Both the position numbers and the translations under genes were made by a program. Below, one piece after another: positions 15,211 through 48,563 of a stretch of 64,000 bases of DNA (position 1 is the first letter of the stretch; each line of letters opens with the position of its first letter). Below the pieces are notes generated by a model. It was not told where the DNA came from. It worked only from the letters and a program-made list of their open reading frames with translations, and made no database searches. The stretch comes from an uncultured Thermoleophilaceae bacterium. GTDB taxonomy: Bacteria > Actinomycetota > Thermoleophilia > Solirubrobacterales > Thermoleophilaceae. The stretch lies in contig OY970283.1 of the NCBI GenBank assembly GCA_963715995.1, positions 2,866,411 to 2,930,410 on the forward strand, in the 5' to 3' direction.

Positions 15211-16143
15211 ATGCGGGGTATTCCAGGACAAGTGCGTGGATTGAAAAAGGCAATCGAGCGCGGCCAGTTCCAGCTCTTCTACCAGCCAAAGGCCGACCTG
15301 AGGACGGGTCGCATCGTCGGCGTTGAGGCGCTCGTGCGCTGGAACAACCCGCGCAAGGGCCTGCTCGGCCCTGCCGAGTTCGTGCCGGCCGCCGAGCGCA
15401 GCGACTCCGCCATCCGCGCCCTCACGCATTGGACGCTCGATGCCGCGTGCCAGCAGGTGCGCGCATGGCAGCTCGAGGGCCTTGACCTGACCGTGGCCGT
15501 GAACCTCTCGCCGCGCGTGCTCGACGTGGGGCTGGCCGACGAGGTCAACACGGTGCTCAAGAAGTGGGACGTGCCGCCCACGCTCGTCCAGCTCGAGCTG
15601 ACCGAGACCGCCGTGTTCGCGATGTCGGACCAGGAGCTCGTGGCGGAGAGCCTGGACCAGCTCTCGGACATCGGCCTGGTGCTGGCACTCGACGACTTCG
15701 GGACCGGCTACTCGTCACTCGCCCGCCTGCGCGACCTGCCGATCCACAAGGTGAAGATCGACCGCTCGTTCGTGTCGCAGATGGACGAGAAGCCGCAGGA
15801 CGCGCTGATCGTCCGCGGCGTCATCGCGCTCGCGAAGAGCCTCCATCTGCGGGTGGTAGCCGAGGGCGTCGAGTCAGAGCCCGTGTGGCGGCGGCTCTCA
15901 GACCTCGGCTGCGACGTGGCGCAGGGCAACTACCTGAGCCGGCCGCTGCCGCCCGCCGAGCTGGTCGCGTGGGTGCGCCAGTGGCAGGAGCTCTACGAGG
16001 AGGCCCACCGCATGGCCGACGAGCTGCTCGAGCGCCGCATGGGCCCGAACGACCGCCGCTCGGGCCCGTCTGATCGCCGCGACGAGTACACGGGCCAGGG
16101 CCGCTTCAAGCGGCGCCGGGGCGACCGCGCGCACTTCGCGTAG
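15211..16143 (+). CDS. stand-alone EAL-domain c-di-GMP phosphodiesterase
   Basis: QLFYQPK...GVEALVRW...ELTE...[10 protein letters not shown]...KIDRSF...AEGVE...QG motifs. The start could be GTG 15232. Confidence 0.8.
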
Positions 16144-16166
16144 GGAGGGCGGCGGGTGCCGCCGCC

Positions 16167-17546
16167 TCAGTCGCTGAAGCGCCCTGCCAGGACTGCCGCC
16201 GGCTCCGGTACGTCGTAGAAGTAGCCCTGGCTCACGTCGCAGCCGAGCGCTCGTGCCTGGTCTGCCTGTGCTTCGGTCTCGACGCCCTCGGCGATCGTCG
16301 TCAGGCCCAGCGTCGAGGCCATCATCGCCACCGCGCCGACGATCGCGGAGTTGCGCTCATCGTCGCCCAGGCCCGTGATGAACGAGCGGTCCACCTTGAG
16401 CGCGTGCAGCGGCAGCATCTGCTTGAGCTGCGCGAGCGAGGAGATGCCAACGCCGAAGTCGTCGACCACGACCTTGACGCCGAGCTTCTTCAGCTCGGTC
16501 AAGGTGGCCATCGTGACGGCTGGGTCGCGCGTGACCGTGGTCTCGGTGACCTCGAGGCAGAGCGCCTTCGGCGGCAGCCCGCTGTCGAGCAGCGCGCGCC
16601 TGACCACGTCGACGATGTCGGGCTGCGCCAGCTGGCCCGCCGAGATGTTCACCGCGATGTCGATGTCGGCGCCCTCGCGCCGCCAGGTTGCGACCTGATC
16701 GCAGGCCTCACGCAGGACCCACTCGCCGATCTCCATCATCAGCCCGGTCTCCTCGGCCAGCGGCACGAACTCGGCCGGCGAGAGCAGGCCACGCTCGGGG
16801 TGCTCCCAGCGAACGAGCGCCTCCAGCGCCACGACCTTGTCCTGGGCGTAGGAGACCTGCGGCTGGTAGTAGACACGCAGCTCGTCCTGTGCCAGCGCAC
16901 GGCGCAGGTCGCTTTCGAGGTCGAGCCGCGCCACGATGCGCTCGCGCAGCGCGTCGTCGAACACCTCCACGCGTCCGGGGCCGCCCTCCTTCGCGCGGTA
17001 CATCGCGGCGTCCGCATCACGTAGCAGCGTCTCGGCGGTGACATCGGGGCCGGCGCCGAGCGCCACGCCGACCGACGCGCTCACGTGCATGTCGCGGCTG
17101 CCCAGCTTGAAGGGGTCGGTGGTCGCCTCGACAACGCGCTGGCCGACCGTGACGGCATCGCGCGCCTCGCCGATGTCCTCGCAGAGGACGACGAACTCGT
17201 CGCCGCCGAAGCGGGCAATCGTGTCGCTTGGGCGCACCGCGTGCAGCAGCCGGCCGGCGAGCTCGACCAGCAGCTGGTCGCCCGCCGTGTGGCCGAGGCT
17301 GTCGTTGACGACCTTGAAGTTGTCGAGGTCGATGAACAGCACCGCCAGGCTCATGTCGCTGCGCCTGAGGCGCGCGAGAGCCAGCTCCAAGCGATTCAGG
17401 AAGAGCGTGCGATTCGGGAGATCGGTCAGCGGATCGTGGAGGACACGATGAGCAAGACCGTCATTGCCGTCAGTTGGTGGCTTCCGTGCCGTGCTCCCAT
17501 TATCTGTGAGCACGGCGCCAAATGCGAGGTCCGAGATAGCCACCAC
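16167..17546 (-). CDS. GGDEF-EAL bifunctional c-di-GMP protein
   Basis: DPLTDLPNR, RFGGDEFVV (intact GGDEF), then EALVRW, EVTE, DDFGVG, KVDRSF and EGVET. No obvious sensor domain. Confidence 0.85.
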   Translation of the reverse strand: MVAISDLAFGAVLTDNGSTARKPPTDGNDGLAHRVLHDPLTDLPNRTLFLNRLELALARLRRSDMSLAVLFIDLDNFKVVNDSLGHTAGDQLLVELAGRLLHAVRPSDTIARFGGDEFVVLCEDIGEARDAVTVGQRVVEATTDPFKLGSRDMHVSASVGVALGAGPDVTAETLLRDADAAMYRAKEGGPGRVEVFDDALRERIVARLDLESDLRRALAQDELRVYYQPQVSYAQDKVVALEALVRWEHPERGLLSPAEFVPLAEETGLMMEIGEWVLREACDQVATWRREGADIDIAVNISAGQLAQPDIVDVVRRALLDSGLPPKALCLEVTETTVTRDPAVTMATLTELKKLGVKVVVDDFGVGISSLAQLKQMLPLHALKVDRSFITGLGDDERNSAIVGAVAMMASTLGLTTIAEGVETEAQADQARALGCDVSQGYFYDVPEPAAVLAGRFSD

Positions 17547-42550: not shown

Positions 42551-44077
42551 CTACTCGACCACGACCGCCGCGCCGCCCCTGCGCGGGTCGCCGCCGCCCG
42601 AGAGCTCGCCGGTCTCGGGATCGCGCGCAGCAGCCTGGACGCCGCCGAAGTAGAGGTTGCGCTCGTGCCAGCGCTGAACCTTCCAGCCGCTTCGCTCGAG
42701 CGAGTCGAGTGCGCGCGGATCGACGCCTGGCTCGGCATCCACCAGGCCGCGTTCCAGGTGAAGGCGTGGCAACTCGACCGCGTTCTCGGCCTTCAGGTTG
42801 AAATCGACGATGTTCAGGATCGTCTGGAGGATCGCCGAGCGGATCCGGTTCGAGCCGGCCGAGCCCAGCACGATCTCGGGCCTGCCGTCATCGTGGAGCA
42901 CGACCGTCGGGGCCATCATGCTCGGAACCCGGGTCCCGCGCGCGTGGCGGTGATGGCCGAGCGGGTTCAGGTCCTCCTCGCCGAGCATGTTGTTCAGGTG
43001 GATACCGGTGCCGGGCACGACGACGCCGGACGACGATCCGCTCGAGCACGTCACGCTCACGCAGCAGCCGTCAGAGTCCATCGCCGAGATGTGGGTGGTC
43101 GAGCCGAGTCGCGACTCGACCTCGCCCGCCACCGAAGCGAGACCGTCCTTGGCCAGGAAGCGCTCGAGATAGCCCTGACTGTGCAGAGCGATCGAGAACT
43201 CCTCGGTACGCGCCTTGTTGGTCTCGTCCATCACCTCGACCAGCGCCCGCAGATCGCCCGGTCGTCCGACTCGCTCCAGCAGATCGAGCGAGTACGCGAT
43301 CAAGATGCCACCCGACGACGGCGGCGGATTGGTCAGGATGTCGCGACCGTGGTAGGTCGCGTGCGCCGGCGTGCGGTCGATCACCCCGTAGCTCGCCAGG
43401 TCCTCGCGCGTGATCAGGCCGCCGCGGTCAAGCACCCAGTCGCTCACGGCCACCGCGACGTCGCCCGTGTACGCGAAGCCCGGCCCCTCGCGGCCCAGCC
43501 GCGAAATCAGGTCACCGAGCTCGGGGTTGCGCATCGTCTCCCCGCTCTCGAGCAGGCGCCCATGCGGGGCGAACCAGGCGCGCCCCTCGTCGGTCGAGAG
43601 CACCATCGAGCCGAGGATCTGGATCAGATAGCCCTGAATCGGCGTGATCTCGTGCCCGTCGCGAGCCACTCGCGCCGGCTCCTCGGCCAGGTCTGCGAAC
43701 GACAGCGTCCCGAAGCGCTCGAGCGCATTCGCCACGCCGAGCGGCGTGCCGTAGACGCCGCACGAGGCCGGGCCCGCGTGGAAGGTCTGGGTCACATCGT
43801 CGGTGAAGGCGACGTCGAACGCGGTCAGCTCGCCGGCTTCGCGATCGGATCCCCGCCCGGGGGCCGCGACGAAGAAGTCCAGCAGCACGTTCTCGCCTGC
43901 GGCCGTGTGCACCAGCATGAATCCGCCGGCGCCCGGGCCTGTGAGCAGTGGCTCGCAGACCCACGACATGAGGCACGCGGCTACGGCGGCGTCAACCGCA
44001 TTGCCACCCTCGCGCAGGACGCGAGCGCCAGCCTCCGCGGTCAGCGGGTGACCGGCAGCAATGACCCCCTTCGCCAC
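42551..44077 (-). CDS. ggt: gamma-glutamyltransferase family protein
   Basis: GGNAVDAAVAA, autoprocessing/nucleophile region GSTTHISAMDSDG, and GSAGSNRI. GTG start 44077. Confidence 0.8.
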   Translation of the reverse strand: MAKGVIAAGHPLTAEAGARVLREGGNAVDAAVAACLMSWVCEPLLTGPGAGGFMLVHTAAGENVLLDFFVAAPGRGSDREAGELTAFDVAFTDDVTQTFHAGPASCGVYGTPLGVANALERFGTLSFADLAEEPARVARDGHEITPIQGYLIQILGSMVLSTDEGRAWFAPHGRLLESGETMRNPELGDLISRLGREGPGFAYTGDVAVAVSDWVLDRGGLITREDLASYGVIDRTPAHATYHGRDILTNPPPSSGGILIAYSLDLLERVGRPGDLRALVEVMDETNKARTEEFSIALHSQGYLERFLAKDGLASVAGEVESRLGSTTHISAMDSDGCCVSVTCSSGSSSGVVVPGTGIHLNNMLGEEDLNPLGHHRHARGTRVPSMMAPTVVLHDDGRPEIVLGSAGSNRIRSAILQTILNIVDFNLKAENAVELPRLHLERGLVDAEPGVDPRALDSLERSGWKVQRWHERNLYFGGVQAAARDPETGELSGGGDPRRGGAAVVVE

Positions 44078-44328: not shown

Positions 44329-45729
44329 CTACCGGCTCGGCGGCACGTACTCCGGGATGCGCAGGTCGCCCAGGGTTGCCGCTGGGCGGCTTGTCCTGCG
44401 CACGCGGGGCTCTGCGTCGGCCGGGATCCGCTGCGGCGTGTGCACCGCGGGGCGCTCCGTTCGGCGCACCTGGCGGTCGCCATAGCCCGTCGCCACGACC
44501 GTCACCCACACCTGGTCGACGACCTTCTCGTCGACCATGGCGCCAAAGATGATGTTGGCGTCGGGGTGCGCGGCCTCGGCCACCGCCTTCGCGGCCTCGT
44601 TGACCTCGAACAGCGAGAGGTCGCGGCCGCCGGTGATCGAGAGCAGGATCGAGCGTGCGCCTTCCACGGACGTCTCGAGCAGTGGTGACTCGACGGCGTG
44701 TCGGGCTGCATCGACCGCGCGGTGCTCGCCAACGCCCATGCCGATGCCGAGCAGCGACTGCCCGGCGTCGGACATGATCGTGCGCACGTCCGCGAAGTCG
44801 AGGTTGATCAGGCCCGGGAGCGTGATCAGGTCGGAGATCCCCTGCACGCCCTGGCGCAGCACGTCGTCGGCGAAGCGGAACGCCTCGACCATCGACGTCT
44901 TCTTGTCGAGCACCTGGAGCAGGCGAGCGTTCGGGATCGTGATGAGGGTGTCCACCGCGTTCGCAAGCTCGGCGACGCCCCGGTCGGCCTGCTCGGCACG
45001 CCGCATTCCCTCGAACGGGAACGGCTTCGTGACGACACCGACGGTGAGCGCCCCGATCTCACGCGCGATCTGCGCGACCACGGGCGCCGCGCCCGTGCCG
45101 GTGCCGCCGCCCGAGCCGGCTGCGACGAACACCATGTCCGAGCCCTTGAGCAGTGCCTTGATCTGGTCGGCGGACTCGAGCGCGGCCTCGCGTCCCAGCG
45201 ACGGGTTCGATCCCGCGCCGAGGCCCCGCGTGAGCTCGCCACCGATGTGCACGAGCTCCGAGGCGCGCGACGTCTGAAGCGACTGCATGTCCGTGTTGAG
45301 CGCGATGAACTCGACGCCCTCGATGCCAGCCTCGATCATCCGGTTGACCGCGTTCACGCCGGCGCCACCGACGCCGACCACGCGCAGGACCGGATGGGCC
45401 ACGCTGTTGGGAGTGGAGATCGCACGCGGCTCGTCACGGCCGTAGCGCGGGCGCGAGACGGGCTCGCGCTCCATCATGTTGTTCGGGATGTCCGGGCTGA
45501 AGACGTCGCGCAGGCGCTGGTCGTAGGCGCGCGGCGCAGGCGTCTCGCGCTCGACGCGCGGTGCCGGCGGCGGCGGGAGCTCGATGCGCTCCGGCTCCTC
45601 GCGTGGCGGCTCGGCAGGAGCGGCTTCGGCGCGCGGCGCCTCCGTCTGCTCCTCGTCAAGCTCGGCTGTCGACCGGAACAGGGCCGAAAGCGGGCCTTCC
45701 CGCATGCTTGCCCGCTTACCGCGATCCAT
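44329..45729 (-). CDS. ftsZ: cell division GTPase FtsZ with ~100-aa N-terminal extension
   Basis: [16 protein letters not shown]7/tubulin signature [22 protein letters not shown], and a C-terminal peptide DLRIPEYV. The ORF start ATG 45729 lies 14 nt inside parA. Confidence 0.9.
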
Positions 45730-46603
45730 TCCCCAGCACCTCCTCAGCCAGCCGTCGGTAGGCGAAGGCCGCCTTCCCGTCGGGGTCGTACTTGAGCACT
45801 GACATTCCCTTCACCGGAGCCTCCGCAAAACGAACCGTCTTGGTTATGCGCGAGGCGAACACCCGGTCTCCGAAGTTCTCCTCGAGGATCTCGATCGCCT
45901 CCTTGGCGTGCACCGTGCGCGTGTCGACGAGCGTCGGCAGGATCCCCTCGATCTCCAGGTCCGGGTTCAGGTCTTCCTTCACCATCGCAACGGTGTTCTG
46001 GAGCTGGATGAGCCCCCGCATCGACAGATACTCGCACTGCACGGGGACGATCACCTTGTTCGACGCGGTGAGCGCGTTGATCGTGATCAGCCCGAGGCTC
46101 GGCGGCGTGTCGATGCAGATGAAGTCGTAGTCCTCGAGGATCGGGGCGAACGCCTTCTGCAACGAGCGCTCACGGCCGATCTGGGTGGACATCGCGATCT
46201 CCGCCCCGGCGAGGTCGATCGAGCTGCAAGCCACGTCGATCTCGCGCTTGCGGATGACCTCACGGATCGAGACGCGGTTCACGAGCACGTCGTACATCGA
46301 CAGCTCGAGCGAGTCGGGGTCGATGCCCTGGCTCATCGTCAAGTTGGACTGTGGGTCGAGGTCGACGCACAGCACGCGGTGCCCTTTCTCGGCAAACGCC
46401 ACCGCCAGGTTGAGCGTGGTGGTGGTCTTCGCCACGCCCCCCTTCTGGTTCGCGAACGAGATCACTTGTGCCTTGGGACCGCCCGAGCCGGCGCTTGGCG
46501 CCTGATCGGGAGTCGCGCGCGGCACCGCCGAAGCGTTGATCACGGACGAAGGTGACGGCGGAAATGCCGGCGGACTGGAACTCTTTCGTTCGAACAGGCC
46601 CAT
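45716..46603 (-). CDS. parA: ParA/Soj-family ATPase (orphan, no parB in window)
   Basis: Deviant Walker [15 protein letters not shown], then DLDPQSN and CIDTPPSLG. ~45-aa Pro/Ser-rich N-extension. ATG 46603 (start uncertain). Confidence 0.85.
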
Positions 46604-46629
46604 ACGGGGGTCTCTATTCGGATGGACAG

Positions 46630-47508
46630 GTGGCTTTCCTTCTAGACAAACGGCTGGTTTTCGTGACGGGCAAGGGCGGCGTCGGCAAGACGACGGTCGC
46701 CACGTGCCTCGCACGGGTGGCCGCGGACCGTGGTCAGCGGGTGATCGTGTGCGAGATCGCGAGCGACGAGCGGGGGCACGACGAGGTCGAGATCGCGCCC
46801 GGCATCCACTCGATCGCGGTCGATCCCGAGCACGCGATGCGCGAGTACCTGAGCGACCAGGTGGGCGGCGCGCTCACCAAGGTCATGACCTCCAGCCGCA
46901 TCTTCACCTACCTGGCCGCAGCCGCTCCGGGCATGCGCGAGCTGCTCACGATCGGGAAGGTCTGGGACCTCGCGCAGCTGGACCAGCGGCGCACGGGCAA
47001 CACGCCGTACGACCTGGTCATCCTCGATGCGCCGGCCACCGGGCACGCGCTCGGGATGCTGCGCACGCCGCGCACGTTCCGCGACGTCGCGCGCGTCGGG
47101 CCCATCTCCCGCCAGGCGGGGCGCATCGACACCTTCCTCAGCAACCCCGACCTCACAGGCATCGTCGCCGTGGCCGCGCCGGAGGAGATGCCGGTGAACG
47201 AGACGATCGAGTTCATCGCCGCACTCGGCGAGGAGATGCACATGCAGCCGGACGCGGTGGTGGTGAACGGCGTCTATCCCGACCGCTTCAAGGACGCGGA
47301 GATCGCGGCGATCGAAGCGGTCGGCGTGGACACGCCGGCGCTGGCCGCGGCGCTCTCGTCGCACCGGCGCGCGCGCCACCACCGCAACCAGGTGCGGCGC
47401 CTGCGCCGCCGAGCGCGCGCGCTGACGCTGCCGTTCCTGTTCCGGCCCGAGCTCGACGACGCCGACCTGGATGAGCTGGCGCGCGTGCTCGCGCGGGGGC
47501 TCGGATGA
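46630..47508 (+). CDS. ArsA/Get3-like ATPase (first of pair)
   Basis: P-loop VTGKGGVGKTTVA and LVILDAPATGHALGML. Start placed at GTG 46630 to avoid overlap with divergent parA (track start 46552). Confidence 0.75.
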   Translation: MAFLLDKRLVFVTGKGGVGKTTVATCLARVAADRGQRVIVCEIASDERGHDEVEIAPGIHSIAVDPEHAMREYLSDQVGGALTKVMTSSRIFTYLAAAAPGMRELLTIGKVWDLAQLDQRRTGNTPYDLVILDAPATGHALGMLRTPRTFRDVARVGPISRQAGRIDTFLSNPDLTGIVAVAAPEEMPVNETIEFIAALGEEMHMQPDAVVVNGVYPDRFKDAEIAAIEAVGVDTPALAAALSSHRRARHHRNQVRRLRRRARALTLPFLFRPELDDADLDELARVLARGLG

Positions 47509-48563
47509 GCATCCAGGCGCTGATCGACGAGGTCGACATCTGCGTCTGCGCGGGCGCGGGCGGTGTCGGCAAGACCTCCACGTCGGCGGCGATCGCGCTC
47601 GGCGCGGCGCAGCGGGGGCGCAAAGCCGCGGTCCTGACGATCGACCCGGCGAAGCGCCTGGCGAATGCGCTCGGGCTGGAGCGCCTGGGCAACGAGCCGC
47701 GGCGCGTGCGCGGCGTGGAAGGTGGCGGCGAGCTCTGGGCCATGATGCTCGACCCCAAGCGCACCTTCGACGAGCTGGTCGAGCGCCACGCCTCAGACGA
47801 GCGCACGCGCGACGCCGTCCTCTCGAACCGGATCTACCAGGAGCTGTCCAGCGCAGTGTCGGGCTCGCAGGAGTACATGGCCATGGAGAAGCTCTACGAG
47901 CTGCACCAGGACGGCCGCTTCGACCTGCTCGTGCTCGACACGCCGCCCACACGCAACGCGCTCGACTTCCTGGACGCGCCCGAGCGGCTTTCGCGCTTCA
48001 TCGACTCGCGCTCGCTGCGCTTCTTCCTGTCGCCCGGGGTGAAGCTGCTCGGTCGCGGCAGCGGCCTGCTGTTCGCGGTGCTCCAGCGCGTCACGGGCAT
48101 CGACCTGCTGCGCGATCTGTCGGAGTTCTTCCAGTCGTTCGGCGACATGTCCGAGGGGTTCCGCGCGCGCGCCGTGCAGGTGCACGAGCTGCTGGCCTCG
48201 GACGCCGCCACGTTCGTGCTGGTGGCATCGCCGCGCCGGGATGCGATCGACGATGCCGTCTTCTTCCACGATCAGCTCGCGCTGCGCGCAATGCCGTTCG
48301 GCGGCGCAGTGGTGAACCGCTTCCACGACGTGCGTGGAAGCTCGGGCAAGGTCGACCTGGCCGCGGCGCTCGGCGCGGAGCTCGCGGGCAAGGTCGAAGC
48401 CGCCTACAGCGACTACAAGGCGCTCTCCGATCGTGACCGCGCCAACCTCCGGCGCCTGACCGAGCGCGTGGCGGGAGAGCCCGTGATCGTCGTGCCCGAG
48501 CTGGACGGCGACGTCCACGATCTGGACGGGCTCGCCGCCATGGTCGAGCACCTCTTCGGTTGA
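47505..48563 (+). CDS. ArsA/Get3-like ATPase (second of pair)
   Basis: P-loop CAGAGGVGKTSTS, TIDPAKRL and LVLDTPPTRNALDFL. ATGA overlap with the preceding gene. Confidence 0.8.
   Translation: MSIQALIDEVDICVCAGAGGVGKTSTSAAIALGAAQRGRKAAVLTIDPAKRLANALGLERLGNEPRRVRGVEGGGELWAMMLDPKRTFDELVERHASDERTRDAVLSNRIYQELSSAVSGSQEYMAMEKLYELHQDGRFDLLVLDTPPTRNALDFLDAPERLSRFIDSRSLRFFLSPGVKLLGRGSGLLFAVLQRVTGIDLLRDLSEFFQSFGDMSEGFRARAVQVHELLASDAATFVLVASPRRDAIDDAVFFHDQLALRAMPFGGAVVNRFHDVRGSSGKVDLAAALGAELAGKVEAAYSDYKALSDRDRANLRRLTERVAGEPVIVVPELDGDVHDLDGLAAMVEHLFG

Follow-up and report, generated by a model that had tools for sequence, protein, structure and literature searches.

Introduction

Can a ParA-family ATPase determine where a cell divides by holding on to FtsZ itself, no adaptor standing between the two? 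The question is raised by a 64-kb stretch of DNA (the window: positions 2,866,411 to 2,930,410 of contig OY970283.1, from an uncultured Thermoleophilaceae bacterium), in which a parA-like gene overlaps an ftsZ gene that encodes a 112-amino acid (aa) N-terminal extension. The G+C content is ~70%, and the proteins nearest to the window FtsZ are labelled Thermoleophilaceae or Solirubrobacterales; a look-up of its exact sequence in public assemblies gave no record. The ParA-family division regulators MinD, MipZ, PomZ and PldP act through adaptors or on the globular domain of FtsZ. To our knowledge the Actinobacteria possess neither Min nor Noc systems, and the placement of the Z-ring in these bacteria is a long-standing question. 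An earlier note on the window proposed that the tip of the extension is a ParA-interaction peptide resembling the N-terminus of ParB proteins. The tip is found here to be invariant over a whole clade, with a parA gene directly upstream in every locus that could be checked. Taken together the sequences suggest that a ParA gripping FtsZ directly, without an adaptor, may place the division ring; the interpretation of the earlier note is plausible and coherent, and is partly supported.

The gene pair is arranged as follows, in coordinates of the window.

44329..45729, minus strand: ftsZ, 466 aa, with the 112-aa N-terminal extension; matches to Pfam and TIGR00065
45716..46603, minus strand: parA-like gene, encoding a ParA/MinD ATPase with a deviant Walker A motif; 295 aa from the ATG at 46603, stop TAA at 45716; matches to Pfam and the PDB
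45716..45745, minus strand: predicted translational-coupling junction, with the Shine-Dalgarno sequence GAGGAGG at 45739..45745, the ftsZ ATG at 45727..45729 and the parA TAA at 45716..45718

The overlap of the two genes in the window is 14 nt, with the sequence ATGGATCGCGGTAA. The ftsZ ATG at 45729 is thus within the 3′ end of parA as the earlier note had it, and every other detail of sequence in that note that could be checked is also correct.

The N-terminal tip of FtsZ

Loci with ftsZ were collected by a scan in which each GTDB species was represented by a single genome, and the best 80 of them were kept. These derive from 80 different assemblies with a single tip-bearing ftsZ in each, and together with the window make up the 81 genomes discussed below. 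Two sets of FtsZ homologues were also used: the 120 best homologue clusters (64–93% identity to the window FtsZ), and a second set of 120 clusters seeded from the most divergent locus, L080. The latter search opened another large lineage that also carries the tip. All the sampled genomes belong to one clade, comprising Solirubrobacterales and Thermoleophilales (NCBI names), and the sample does not reach Gaiellales, Miltoncostaeales or Rubrobacteria. The tip is located as follows.

45667..45714, minus strand: FtsZ N-terminal tip, residues 6–21; invariant 16-residue short linear motif, proposed as a ParA-docking and ATPase-activating peptide

The consensus of the tip is R-A-S-M-R-E-G-P-L-x-x-L-F-R-x-T, preceded by lysine or arginine. 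It is present as one copy, always at the N-terminus of FtsZ, in 81 of 81 genomes, in which R6 to L14, L17, F18, R19 and T21 are 100% identical; such conservation greatly exceeds what chance would give. The tip is carried by 115 of the 120 best homologue clusters, the other five comprising two N-terminal truncations and three single substitutions within the tip. It is found in 119 of the 120 clusters of the L080-seeded set, where the remaining one is a gene call without the tip; in the L080 lineage it ends as [SA][DE]LFRST. Across >300 metagenomic protein clusters the tip is essentially invariant in its amino acids, so the conservation of extension and tip in orthologues, on which the proposal of the earlier note depends, extends through the clade.

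The nucleotide sequence of the tip behaves differently from its amino acid sequence. Each invariant site is encoded by between two and six synonymous codons, including AGC and TCG for serine, CGN and AGG for arginine and CTN and TTG for leucine. Because the tip codons vary freely, selection acts on the protein and not on the 14-nt overlap or an RNA element, and on this comparison of codons the conservation of the tip is ascribed to purifying selection at the protein level. The ATG located eight codons upstream of the second methionine is kept in 69 of 81 genomes and AGGAGG in 63 of 81. As the R-A-S that precedes the second methionine is invariant, and both the upstream ATG and AGGAGG are conserved, the first ATG is taken to be the start, rather than the internal Met85/Met86 (45477/45474) that the earlier note had considered as a possible true start. 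Some database gene calls do begin at the second methionine (MREGPL...), and a few are shorter. Yet the chance that the extension is an artefact of annotation, with translation starting at the Met-Met and the upstream conservation arising from the 3′ end of parA or an RNA element, is negligible. Conservation runs over 21 codons and again over residues 67–96, against a parA overlap of 14 nt; the synonymous variation includes switches within the six-fold degenerate serine, arginine and leucine; a Shine-Dalgarno sequence stands before the first ATG; and Met85 and Met86 themselves lie inside a second conserved block of the extension. A mis-called start, or conservation driven by RNA or by the overlap, is ruled out by the synonymous variation and is effectively refuted.

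A profile of the tip alone was compared with 1.84 billion representative sequences, giving 1060 matches. Among the 150 matches listed all carry the tip, and they comprise N-terminal pieces of FtsZ (some frameshifted) and three singleton fusions of odd architecture. The N-terminal pieces fall into separate clusters because the linker that follows the tip is hypervariable. No other carrier of the tag was identified among these 150 matches, the strongest of the 1060, which apart from the fragments of FtsZ include just three probable chimeras. In the latter (P0142, P0213 and P0270) the tip is fused to a TolA-C-like tail, an OST-HTH-like tail and one other tail. As each is a singleton on one metagenome contig of 0.9–1.5 kb they are most likely assembly chimeras; if any were genuine, this would make the tip a modular tag. 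No further tip-like peptide is present in 1.6 Mb of neighbouring DNA.

Linkage of ftsZ to parA

Comparison of the window proteins with the 80 loci by tblastn places ParA directly upstream of ftsZ in 79 of the 79 loci that reach far enough; L001, with just 107 nt of upstream sequence, is left out of the count. The pairing of the tip with an upstream parA, which the earlier note had seen in a single locus, thus holds in all those that could be checked. The two genes overlap in 70 of 77 loci, by exactly 14 nt in 61 and by 8–17 nt in nine, and are separated by gaps of 12–47 nt in the other seven. Judged from this arrangement, ftsZ is translationally coupled to parA. The core of ParA is more conserved than the GTPase core of FtsZ in 72 of 72 comparisons, with median identities to the window proteins of 85.5% and 77.0% respectively. 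It is unusual for a ParA-family protein to exceed FtsZ in conservation.

The remainder of the extension

Two further sections can be distinguished between the tip and the GTPase core.

45532..45666, minus strand: hypervariable disordered linker rich in Pro, Glu, Ala and Arg, residues 22–66; predicted local distance difference test score (pLDDT) <50 in AlphaFold2 (AF2)
45442..45531, minus strand: second conserved block (block 2), residues 67–96, R.Y..RLR.VFS.DIP.NMMER....RP.Y, from an alignment of 70 sequences

The whole stretch from tip to core (residues 22–112, 91 aa, including block 2) contains 20% Pro, 16% Glu, 14% Arg and 12% Ala, in keeping with the long Pro/Glu-rich linker described in the earlier note. 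The linker, which spaces the tip from block 2, varies between 35 and 93 aa in relatives. The distance from block 2 to the GTPase core is nearly fixed, at 42–55 aa. Within block 2 R72, L73, F77 and P82 are invariant in the 70 sequences. The L080 lineage keeps RLKRVFSEEP without the DIP. The S-D-I-P-x-N-M-M of this block is vaguely like the D-I-P-x-F-L peptide at the C-terminus of FtsZ.

In an AF2 model of FtsZ alone, which is of mediocre quality (mean pLDDT 61), helices of low confidence are formed by residues 15–26 and by 68–76 and 83–87. Docking of the tip onto FtsZ itself was considered and rejected, as this model has no confident contact between tip and core, nor does any part of the extension dock there. 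Short linear motifs that become folded on a partner are expected to behave in this way. Residues 268–323 (~44761..44928, the end of the GTPase domain with H7 and the T7 loop) are also modelled with pLDDT <50 though highly conserved, which is probably an effect of a shallow alignment of low diversity rather than a real feature.

The helix predicted at residues 15–26 raises the possibility that the tip targets the membrane as a short amphipathic helix, by which FtsZ would bind there directly. L14, L17 and F18 would be located on one helical face with Arg and Lys flanking them. However, that face comprises only three residues and is followed immediately by an acidic run rich in Glu and Asp. Membrane-targeting helices tolerate substitution, yet the Gly, Pro, Glu, Ser and Thr of the tip are invariant. 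Moreover, FtsZ retains the canonical C-terminal peptide to which anchors bind. Membrane targeting by the tip is therefore improbable.

The ParA ATPase

In Pfam the window ParA matches AAA_31 with 204 bits and CbiA with 96 bits. The MipZ profile is matched with 50 bits over positions 2–142 of 262, i.e. its N-terminal half; this is above the cut-off and far below AAA_31. Among proteins of known structure the best match is to a Mycobacterium smegmatis protein (4PFS/5IHP/5IF9, 208 bits), followed by Myxococcus xanthus ParA (8RAY, 194 bits) and the Soj proteins of H. pylori and T. thermophilus (~160 bits; 1WCV 160). Alignment to these locates the functional elements.

46421..46444, minus strand: deviant Walker A motif, K54-G-G-V-A-K59-T-T, with signature lysine K54; from the sequence and the 8RAY alignment
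46355..46363, minus strand: catalytic Asp pair D81/D83, in D81-L-D83-P-Q-S-N; 8RAY alignment
45968..46294, minus strand: surface equivalent to the ParB-peptide site; HMMER alignment to 8RAY, numbering fixed by D58/D60
45830..45832, minus strand: R258, in KTVRFAE, equivalent of the non-specific DNA-binding Arg (M. xanthus R238 / Bs R189); 8RAY alignment

The Walker B aspartate is D165 (IC-I-D165-TPP). With QKGGVAKTT for the xKGGxxK[ST] of the family, and with the Asp pair and Walker B, the protein is a ParA/MinD ATPase of the deviant Walker A type. An arginine equivalent to R238 was read in 69 of 77 ParA orthologues; the R238E variant of M. xanthus ParA is deficient in DNA binding (PMC12462528).

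BLASTP gives the window ParA an identity of 46% to the M. smegmatis 4PFS protein, and of 40–41% to M. xanthus ParA and T. thermophilus Soj. The last two, which are canonical proteins from different phyla, are 51% identical to each other. The window ParA would accordingly be a paralogue that does not group with canonical Soj, by a crude test of similarity rather than a phylogeny, and with no actinobacterial protein among the canonical ParAs compared. No parB, mur, fts (ftsW, ftsQ) or sepF gene was found by a Pfam scan of ~45 open reading frames (ORFs) supported by their third-position G+C content (GC3) in the whole 64-kb window, nor is there a parS-like site when up to three mismatches are allowed. 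A canonical soj gene adjoins parB and is located near parS and oriC; here it is ftsZ that lies downstream, in 79 of 79 loci. The earlier note called this ParA an orphan, which it is locally, having no parB within the 64 kb, and its identities place it among the non-canonical proteins. Besides ParAB, a second parA-like gene is reported to be ubiquitous in 100 actinobacterial genomes that were surveyed, Conexibacter and Rubrobacter among them (PMC4255298). The non-canonical ParA of the window fits that survey, as a possible orthologue of PldP/ParA2 or of Rv3213c.

These data bear upon another explanation of the locus, in which the ParA is the chromosome-segregation ATPase of the cell, its ParB is encoded elsewhere, linkage to ftsZ serves only to coordinate the expression of segregation and division, and the tip is either unrelated or a competitor of ParB for one site. 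All the catalytic residues and the DNA-binding arginine are kept, and the pocket that binds ParB is intact. Nevertheless it is an unlikely explanation, in view of the low identity to canonical ParAs compared with that between canonical proteins of different phyla, the absence of parB and parS from the 64 kb, the ubiquitous second parA-like gene of the actinobacterial survey, and the replacement of a ParB-contacting glutamate described in the following section.

The 4PFS/5IHP/5IF9 protein was deposited as a ‘cobyrinic acid a,c-diamide synthase’; this name is a misnomer, as the protein is an orphan ParA. Its gene (L081:8001-8807, M. smegmatis) has a phosphoglycerate-mutase-like/chorismate-binding pair on one side and a PP2C-like gene with a DEAD helicase on the other, and is near whiB and pdtaS. 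We take this to be the position of the orphan ParA Rv3213c in M. tuberculosis. A similar pattern of partner tagging was looked for in M. smegmatis and rejected, since the PP2C-like product encoded downstream of the Rv3213c-position ParA has an unrelated N-terminus that is not tip-like.

Residues 1–7 of the window ParA (46583..46603, minus strand) form a motif MGLF[ED][RK]K that is conserved in a Thermoleophilaceae-like subset, and is followed by a variable spacer of ~40 aa. A start of this type is seen in L002 (as MGLLQRT), L005, L009, L010, L017, L024, L029 and L042. In most other loci ParA seems to start ~10 aa before the Walker A motif. The MGLF motif resembles the N-terminus of PspA/Vipp1 proteins.

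Comparison with the ParA-binding peptide of ParB

Genes of ParA/MinD ATPases adjoin those of their cargo or partner, which makes contact by way of an N-terminus that is disordered and carries positive charge (PMC10241942). The motif L11-G-R13-G-L15-x-x-L18-I19 of M. xanthus ParB binds as a helix in a hydrophobic pocket of ParA, where R13 contacts Y81, E82, D110 and E117; the last of these is reported to be invariant in 3800 ParA homologues (PMC12462528).

In the window ParA the pocket is formed by I136, L170, L172, I175, M207 and L212 (V116, L150, L152, L155, L187 and L192 in M. xanthus), and these residues are recovered in 74 of 77 orthologues. The polar patch comprises Y104, D105, D130 and A137. 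A137 stands in place of the canonical E117, and an alanine is found there in all 75 orthologues, out of 77, for which this motif was read; it is the one canonical residue of the site to be lost.

The resemblance of the tip to the ParB peptide proposed in the earlier note holds in part. L14, L17 and F18 are in register with L15, L18 and I19 of ParB, and the L-x-x-L-[ILF] triad is invariant. The central Arg and upstream Leu of ParB have no counterpart in register, G12 and R10 of the tip standing at the positions of R13 and L11. In the sequence M9-R10-E11-G12-P13-L14 an arginine is located four residues, and a hydrophobic residue five residues, before L14, and an insertion of 1–2 residues would be needed for the register of ParB. 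G-P and several basic residues stand before the triad, and an acidic run comes after it. The tip lies at the extreme N-terminus of a disordered region (the 35–93-aa linker, pLDDT <50). Both sides of the R13–E117 contact are thus altered together, which is suggestive of a co-adapted variant interface. Comparison with the published examples (PMC10241942, PMC12462528) supports the view that the tip is built in general like the peptides by which partners bind ParA/MinD ATPases, with an extreme N-terminal location, basic and hydrophobic character and a disordered tether. A direct interaction between ParA and the FtsZ tip would be the best of the explanations considered here, at slightly less than an even chance.

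A proposed mechanism

We propose that Thermoleophilia position the ring with a minimal two-component system, in which a dedicated nucleoid-bound ParA recognizes an N-terminal ‘luggage-tag’ on FtsZ, and the filaments are both cargo and multivalent activator. A probability of about 0.4 is given to this reading. The two genes form a module, parA-ftsZ, that is conserved across Thermoleophilia, and in this scheme FtsZ would take the partner role that ParB, MinE, McdB and PomX have for other ParA/MinD ATPases. ATP-bound ParA dimers would coat the nucleoid. The tip would fold into a short amphipathic helix with P13 as N-cap and L14, L17 and F18 on one face, and the tethered tips would bind the pocket that lies at the ParA dimer's edge, with the basic residues K5, R6, R10 and R19 contacting the acidic patch. 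As FtsZ filaments display many tethered tips, binding should be avid. It would locally stimulate ATP hydrolysis by ParA and release from DNA, and the resulting depletion zone or flux of ParA would position FtsZ assembly relative to the nucleoid, as in PomXYZ or McdAB. Equivalently, Z-rings would be kept from maturing where the density of ParA on DNA is high. Membrane anchoring and recruitment of the divisome would proceed through the normal C-terminal peptide of FtsZ.

Several points weigh against this scheme. Since all the sampled genomes form one clade that has both traits, the co-occurrence of tip and parA amounts to roughly a single evolutionary event. The neighbourhood is conserved beyond the gene pair, including divergent BagA/BagB-like ATPases, a downstream gamma-glutamyltranspeptidase and a gene with a Lon N-domain; because the whole local synteny is conserved at such depth, adjacency alone is weak evidence. 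The match to the ParB motif comprises three of five key positions in register. Finally, the real contact of ParA might be block 2, or the globular domain, or nothing in FtsZ.

The same points lend some weight to a different explanation, whereby the tip docks another partner (such as a lineage-specific membrane anchor, a bundler, a protease adaptor, or an enzyme that acts as Ser/Thr kinase or phosphatase on the invariant S8/T21), and ParA either regulates FtsZ, if it does so at all, through the globular domain in the manner of MipZ or is merely co-expressed. The invariant and non-hydrophobic R-A-S-M-R-E-G-P shows specific recognition by a protein, not by which one. The match to ParB is partial, the breadth of synteny means that adjacency could be inherited baggage, and block 2 is a second conserved element of unassigned role. 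However, apart from ParA and the BagAB-like ATPases no candidate is encoded in the conserved neighbourhood. In position, charge and tether the tip agrees exactly with the known partner peptides of ParA/MinD ATPases, the pocket of ParA is retained, and conservation as extreme as that of ParA suggests a surface constrained by interaction. Another partner for the tip is thus rather unlikely, though the strongest competitor to recognition by ParA.

If the two-component scheme is correct, it would be a candidate answer to the choice of division site in actinobacteria without Min and Noc. The module would be a very simple and directly testable system, requiring two proteins, DNA and nucleotides, and could give a clue to the targets of related orphan ParAs in mycobacteria and streptomycetes. 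Should the binder not be ParA, the tip and block 2 would still be new conserved interaction motifs of FtsZ in an abundant soil lineage.

The core and C-terminus of FtsZ

Beyond the extension the protein is a bona fide FtsZ. It matches the TIGR00065 equivalog with 418 bits against a cut-off of 295, and in Pfam Tubulin with 157 bits (residues 116–274) and FtsZ_C with 107 bits (residues 323–415). The GGGTGTG signature at residue 207 and the T7 loop NLDFADV at 309 are both invariant in 70 homologues.

44485..45384, minus strand: GTPase and C-terminal globular domains, residues 116–415; Pfam, AF2 fold
44332..44373, minus strand: C-terminal conserved peptide; canonical, D-[VI]-P-E-[FY] in relatives

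In the C-terminal peptide P459, E460 and P463 are invariant in the 70-sequence alignment, and the L080 lineage has DVPEFLPG. With this canonical peptide kept, FtsZ still has the site on which anchors and regulators usually dock.

Neighbouring genes

The genes on either side of the pair are as follows.

46552..48563, plus strand: two ATPases of the Get3/ArsA fold, like mycobacterial BagA (134 bits) and BagB (363 bits), divergent from parA
42551..44077, minus strand: gamma-glutamyltranspeptidase gene (ggt), directly downstream of ftsZ

The divergent arrangement of bagAB and parA is kept in nearly all of the 79 loci. The longest bagA ORF (GTG at 46552) overlaps the parA ATG at 46603, so the start of bagA must be further in; its conservation begins at about residue 27–30. 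The intergenic space for promoters is almost nil, for which reason the bagA and parA transcripts may be leaderless. A scan for promoters and terminators between 43900 and 47000 gave no signal exceeding chance. The ggt gene is located downstream of ftsZ in nearly all loci (47–69% identity), with no obvious functional link.

In the 79 loci the neighbours of ftsZ are parA, the bagAB-like genes and ggt, and not those of the division and cell wall (dcw) cluster. No dcw genes are present in the 44 kb that flank parA-ftsZ towards low coordinates or the 17 kb towards high coordinates, so that the Pfam scan bears out the earlier note as to both the lack of a dcw-type neighbourhood and the lack of parB in the window. 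The other ORFs of the window are ordinary metabolic and regulatory genes. They include genes for methylmalonyl-CoA mutase, MeaB and ETF/ETF-QO, a housekeeping context, and at 15211..17546 an EAL-only protein (plus strand) that adjoins a GGDEF-EAL protein (minus strand).

Comparison with known systems

No description of a parA-ftsZ module was found by literature searches on Thermoleophilia, FtsZ, ParA and dcw. A near parallel to the proposed interface is that of ParB with ParA in M. xanthus, where the peptide is likewise at the extreme N-terminus, disordered and basic, with an L-x-x-L-hydrophobic triad, and ParA has the pocket and the equivalents of Y81, E82 and D110 (PMC12462528). The carrier here is FtsZ in place of a CTPase clamp on parS, M-R-E-G-P-L stands for the L-G-R-G-L in which glycines flank the central Arg, and the ParA is a divergent paralogue with alanine at E117.

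The scheme as a whole resembles the PomXYZ system of M. xanthus, in which a nucleoid-bound ParA/MinD ATPase positions the Z-ring and is activated by the N-terminal peptide of a partner (PMC7993993, PMC10307791). There the adaptors PomX and PomY stand between the ATPase and FtsZ, while here the peptide is on FtsZ and the conserved neighbourhood contains no adaptor gene. MipZ of Caulobacter is also a ParA-like ATPase that acts directly on FtsZ (PMC9897490). However, it caps FtsZ polymers by way of the globular domain, takes its pattern from ParB and has no activating peptide on FtsZ, and mipZ is neither fused to ftsZ nor overlaps it. In MinCDE an ATPase of the ParA/MinD family controls placement of the Z-ring, with MinE as the peptide activator. 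MinD differs in being bound to the membrane by a C-terminal amphipathic helix, which is absent in the window ParA, and in acting via MinC on the C-terminal peptide of FtsZ.

Within the same phylum the orphan ParAs PldP/ParA2 (C. glutamicum cg1610, SCO1772, Rv1708) and Rv3213c are similarly non-canonical, with no adjacent parB. PldP localizes to septa and affects division, and the Rv3213c-position protein of M. smegmatis (4PFS/5IHP/5IF9, 46% identity) is the closest solved structure to the window ParA. Unlike the latter, these proteins are not linked to ftsZ, and we know of no N-terminal extension on the FtsZ of M. tuberculosis or Streptomyces. Debate continues over the cargo of PldP (TatA dynamics; bioRxiv 10.1101/2025.07.02.662783). 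The FtsZ of heterocyst-forming cyanobacteria (Anabaena) also carries a clade-specific conserved N-terminal peptide that is required for normal division (PMC6175996). That peptide is unrelated in sequence and acts on the polymerization of FtsZ, with no linkage to ParA reported.

If the proposed reading is correct, the parA-ftsZ module would be the first adaptor-free system of ParA–FtsZ positioning. It would follow the principle of other ParA/MinD ATPases and their partners with the tag placed on FtsZ itself, and would extend the rule of the N-terminal ‘luggage tag’ to the cytoskeleton.

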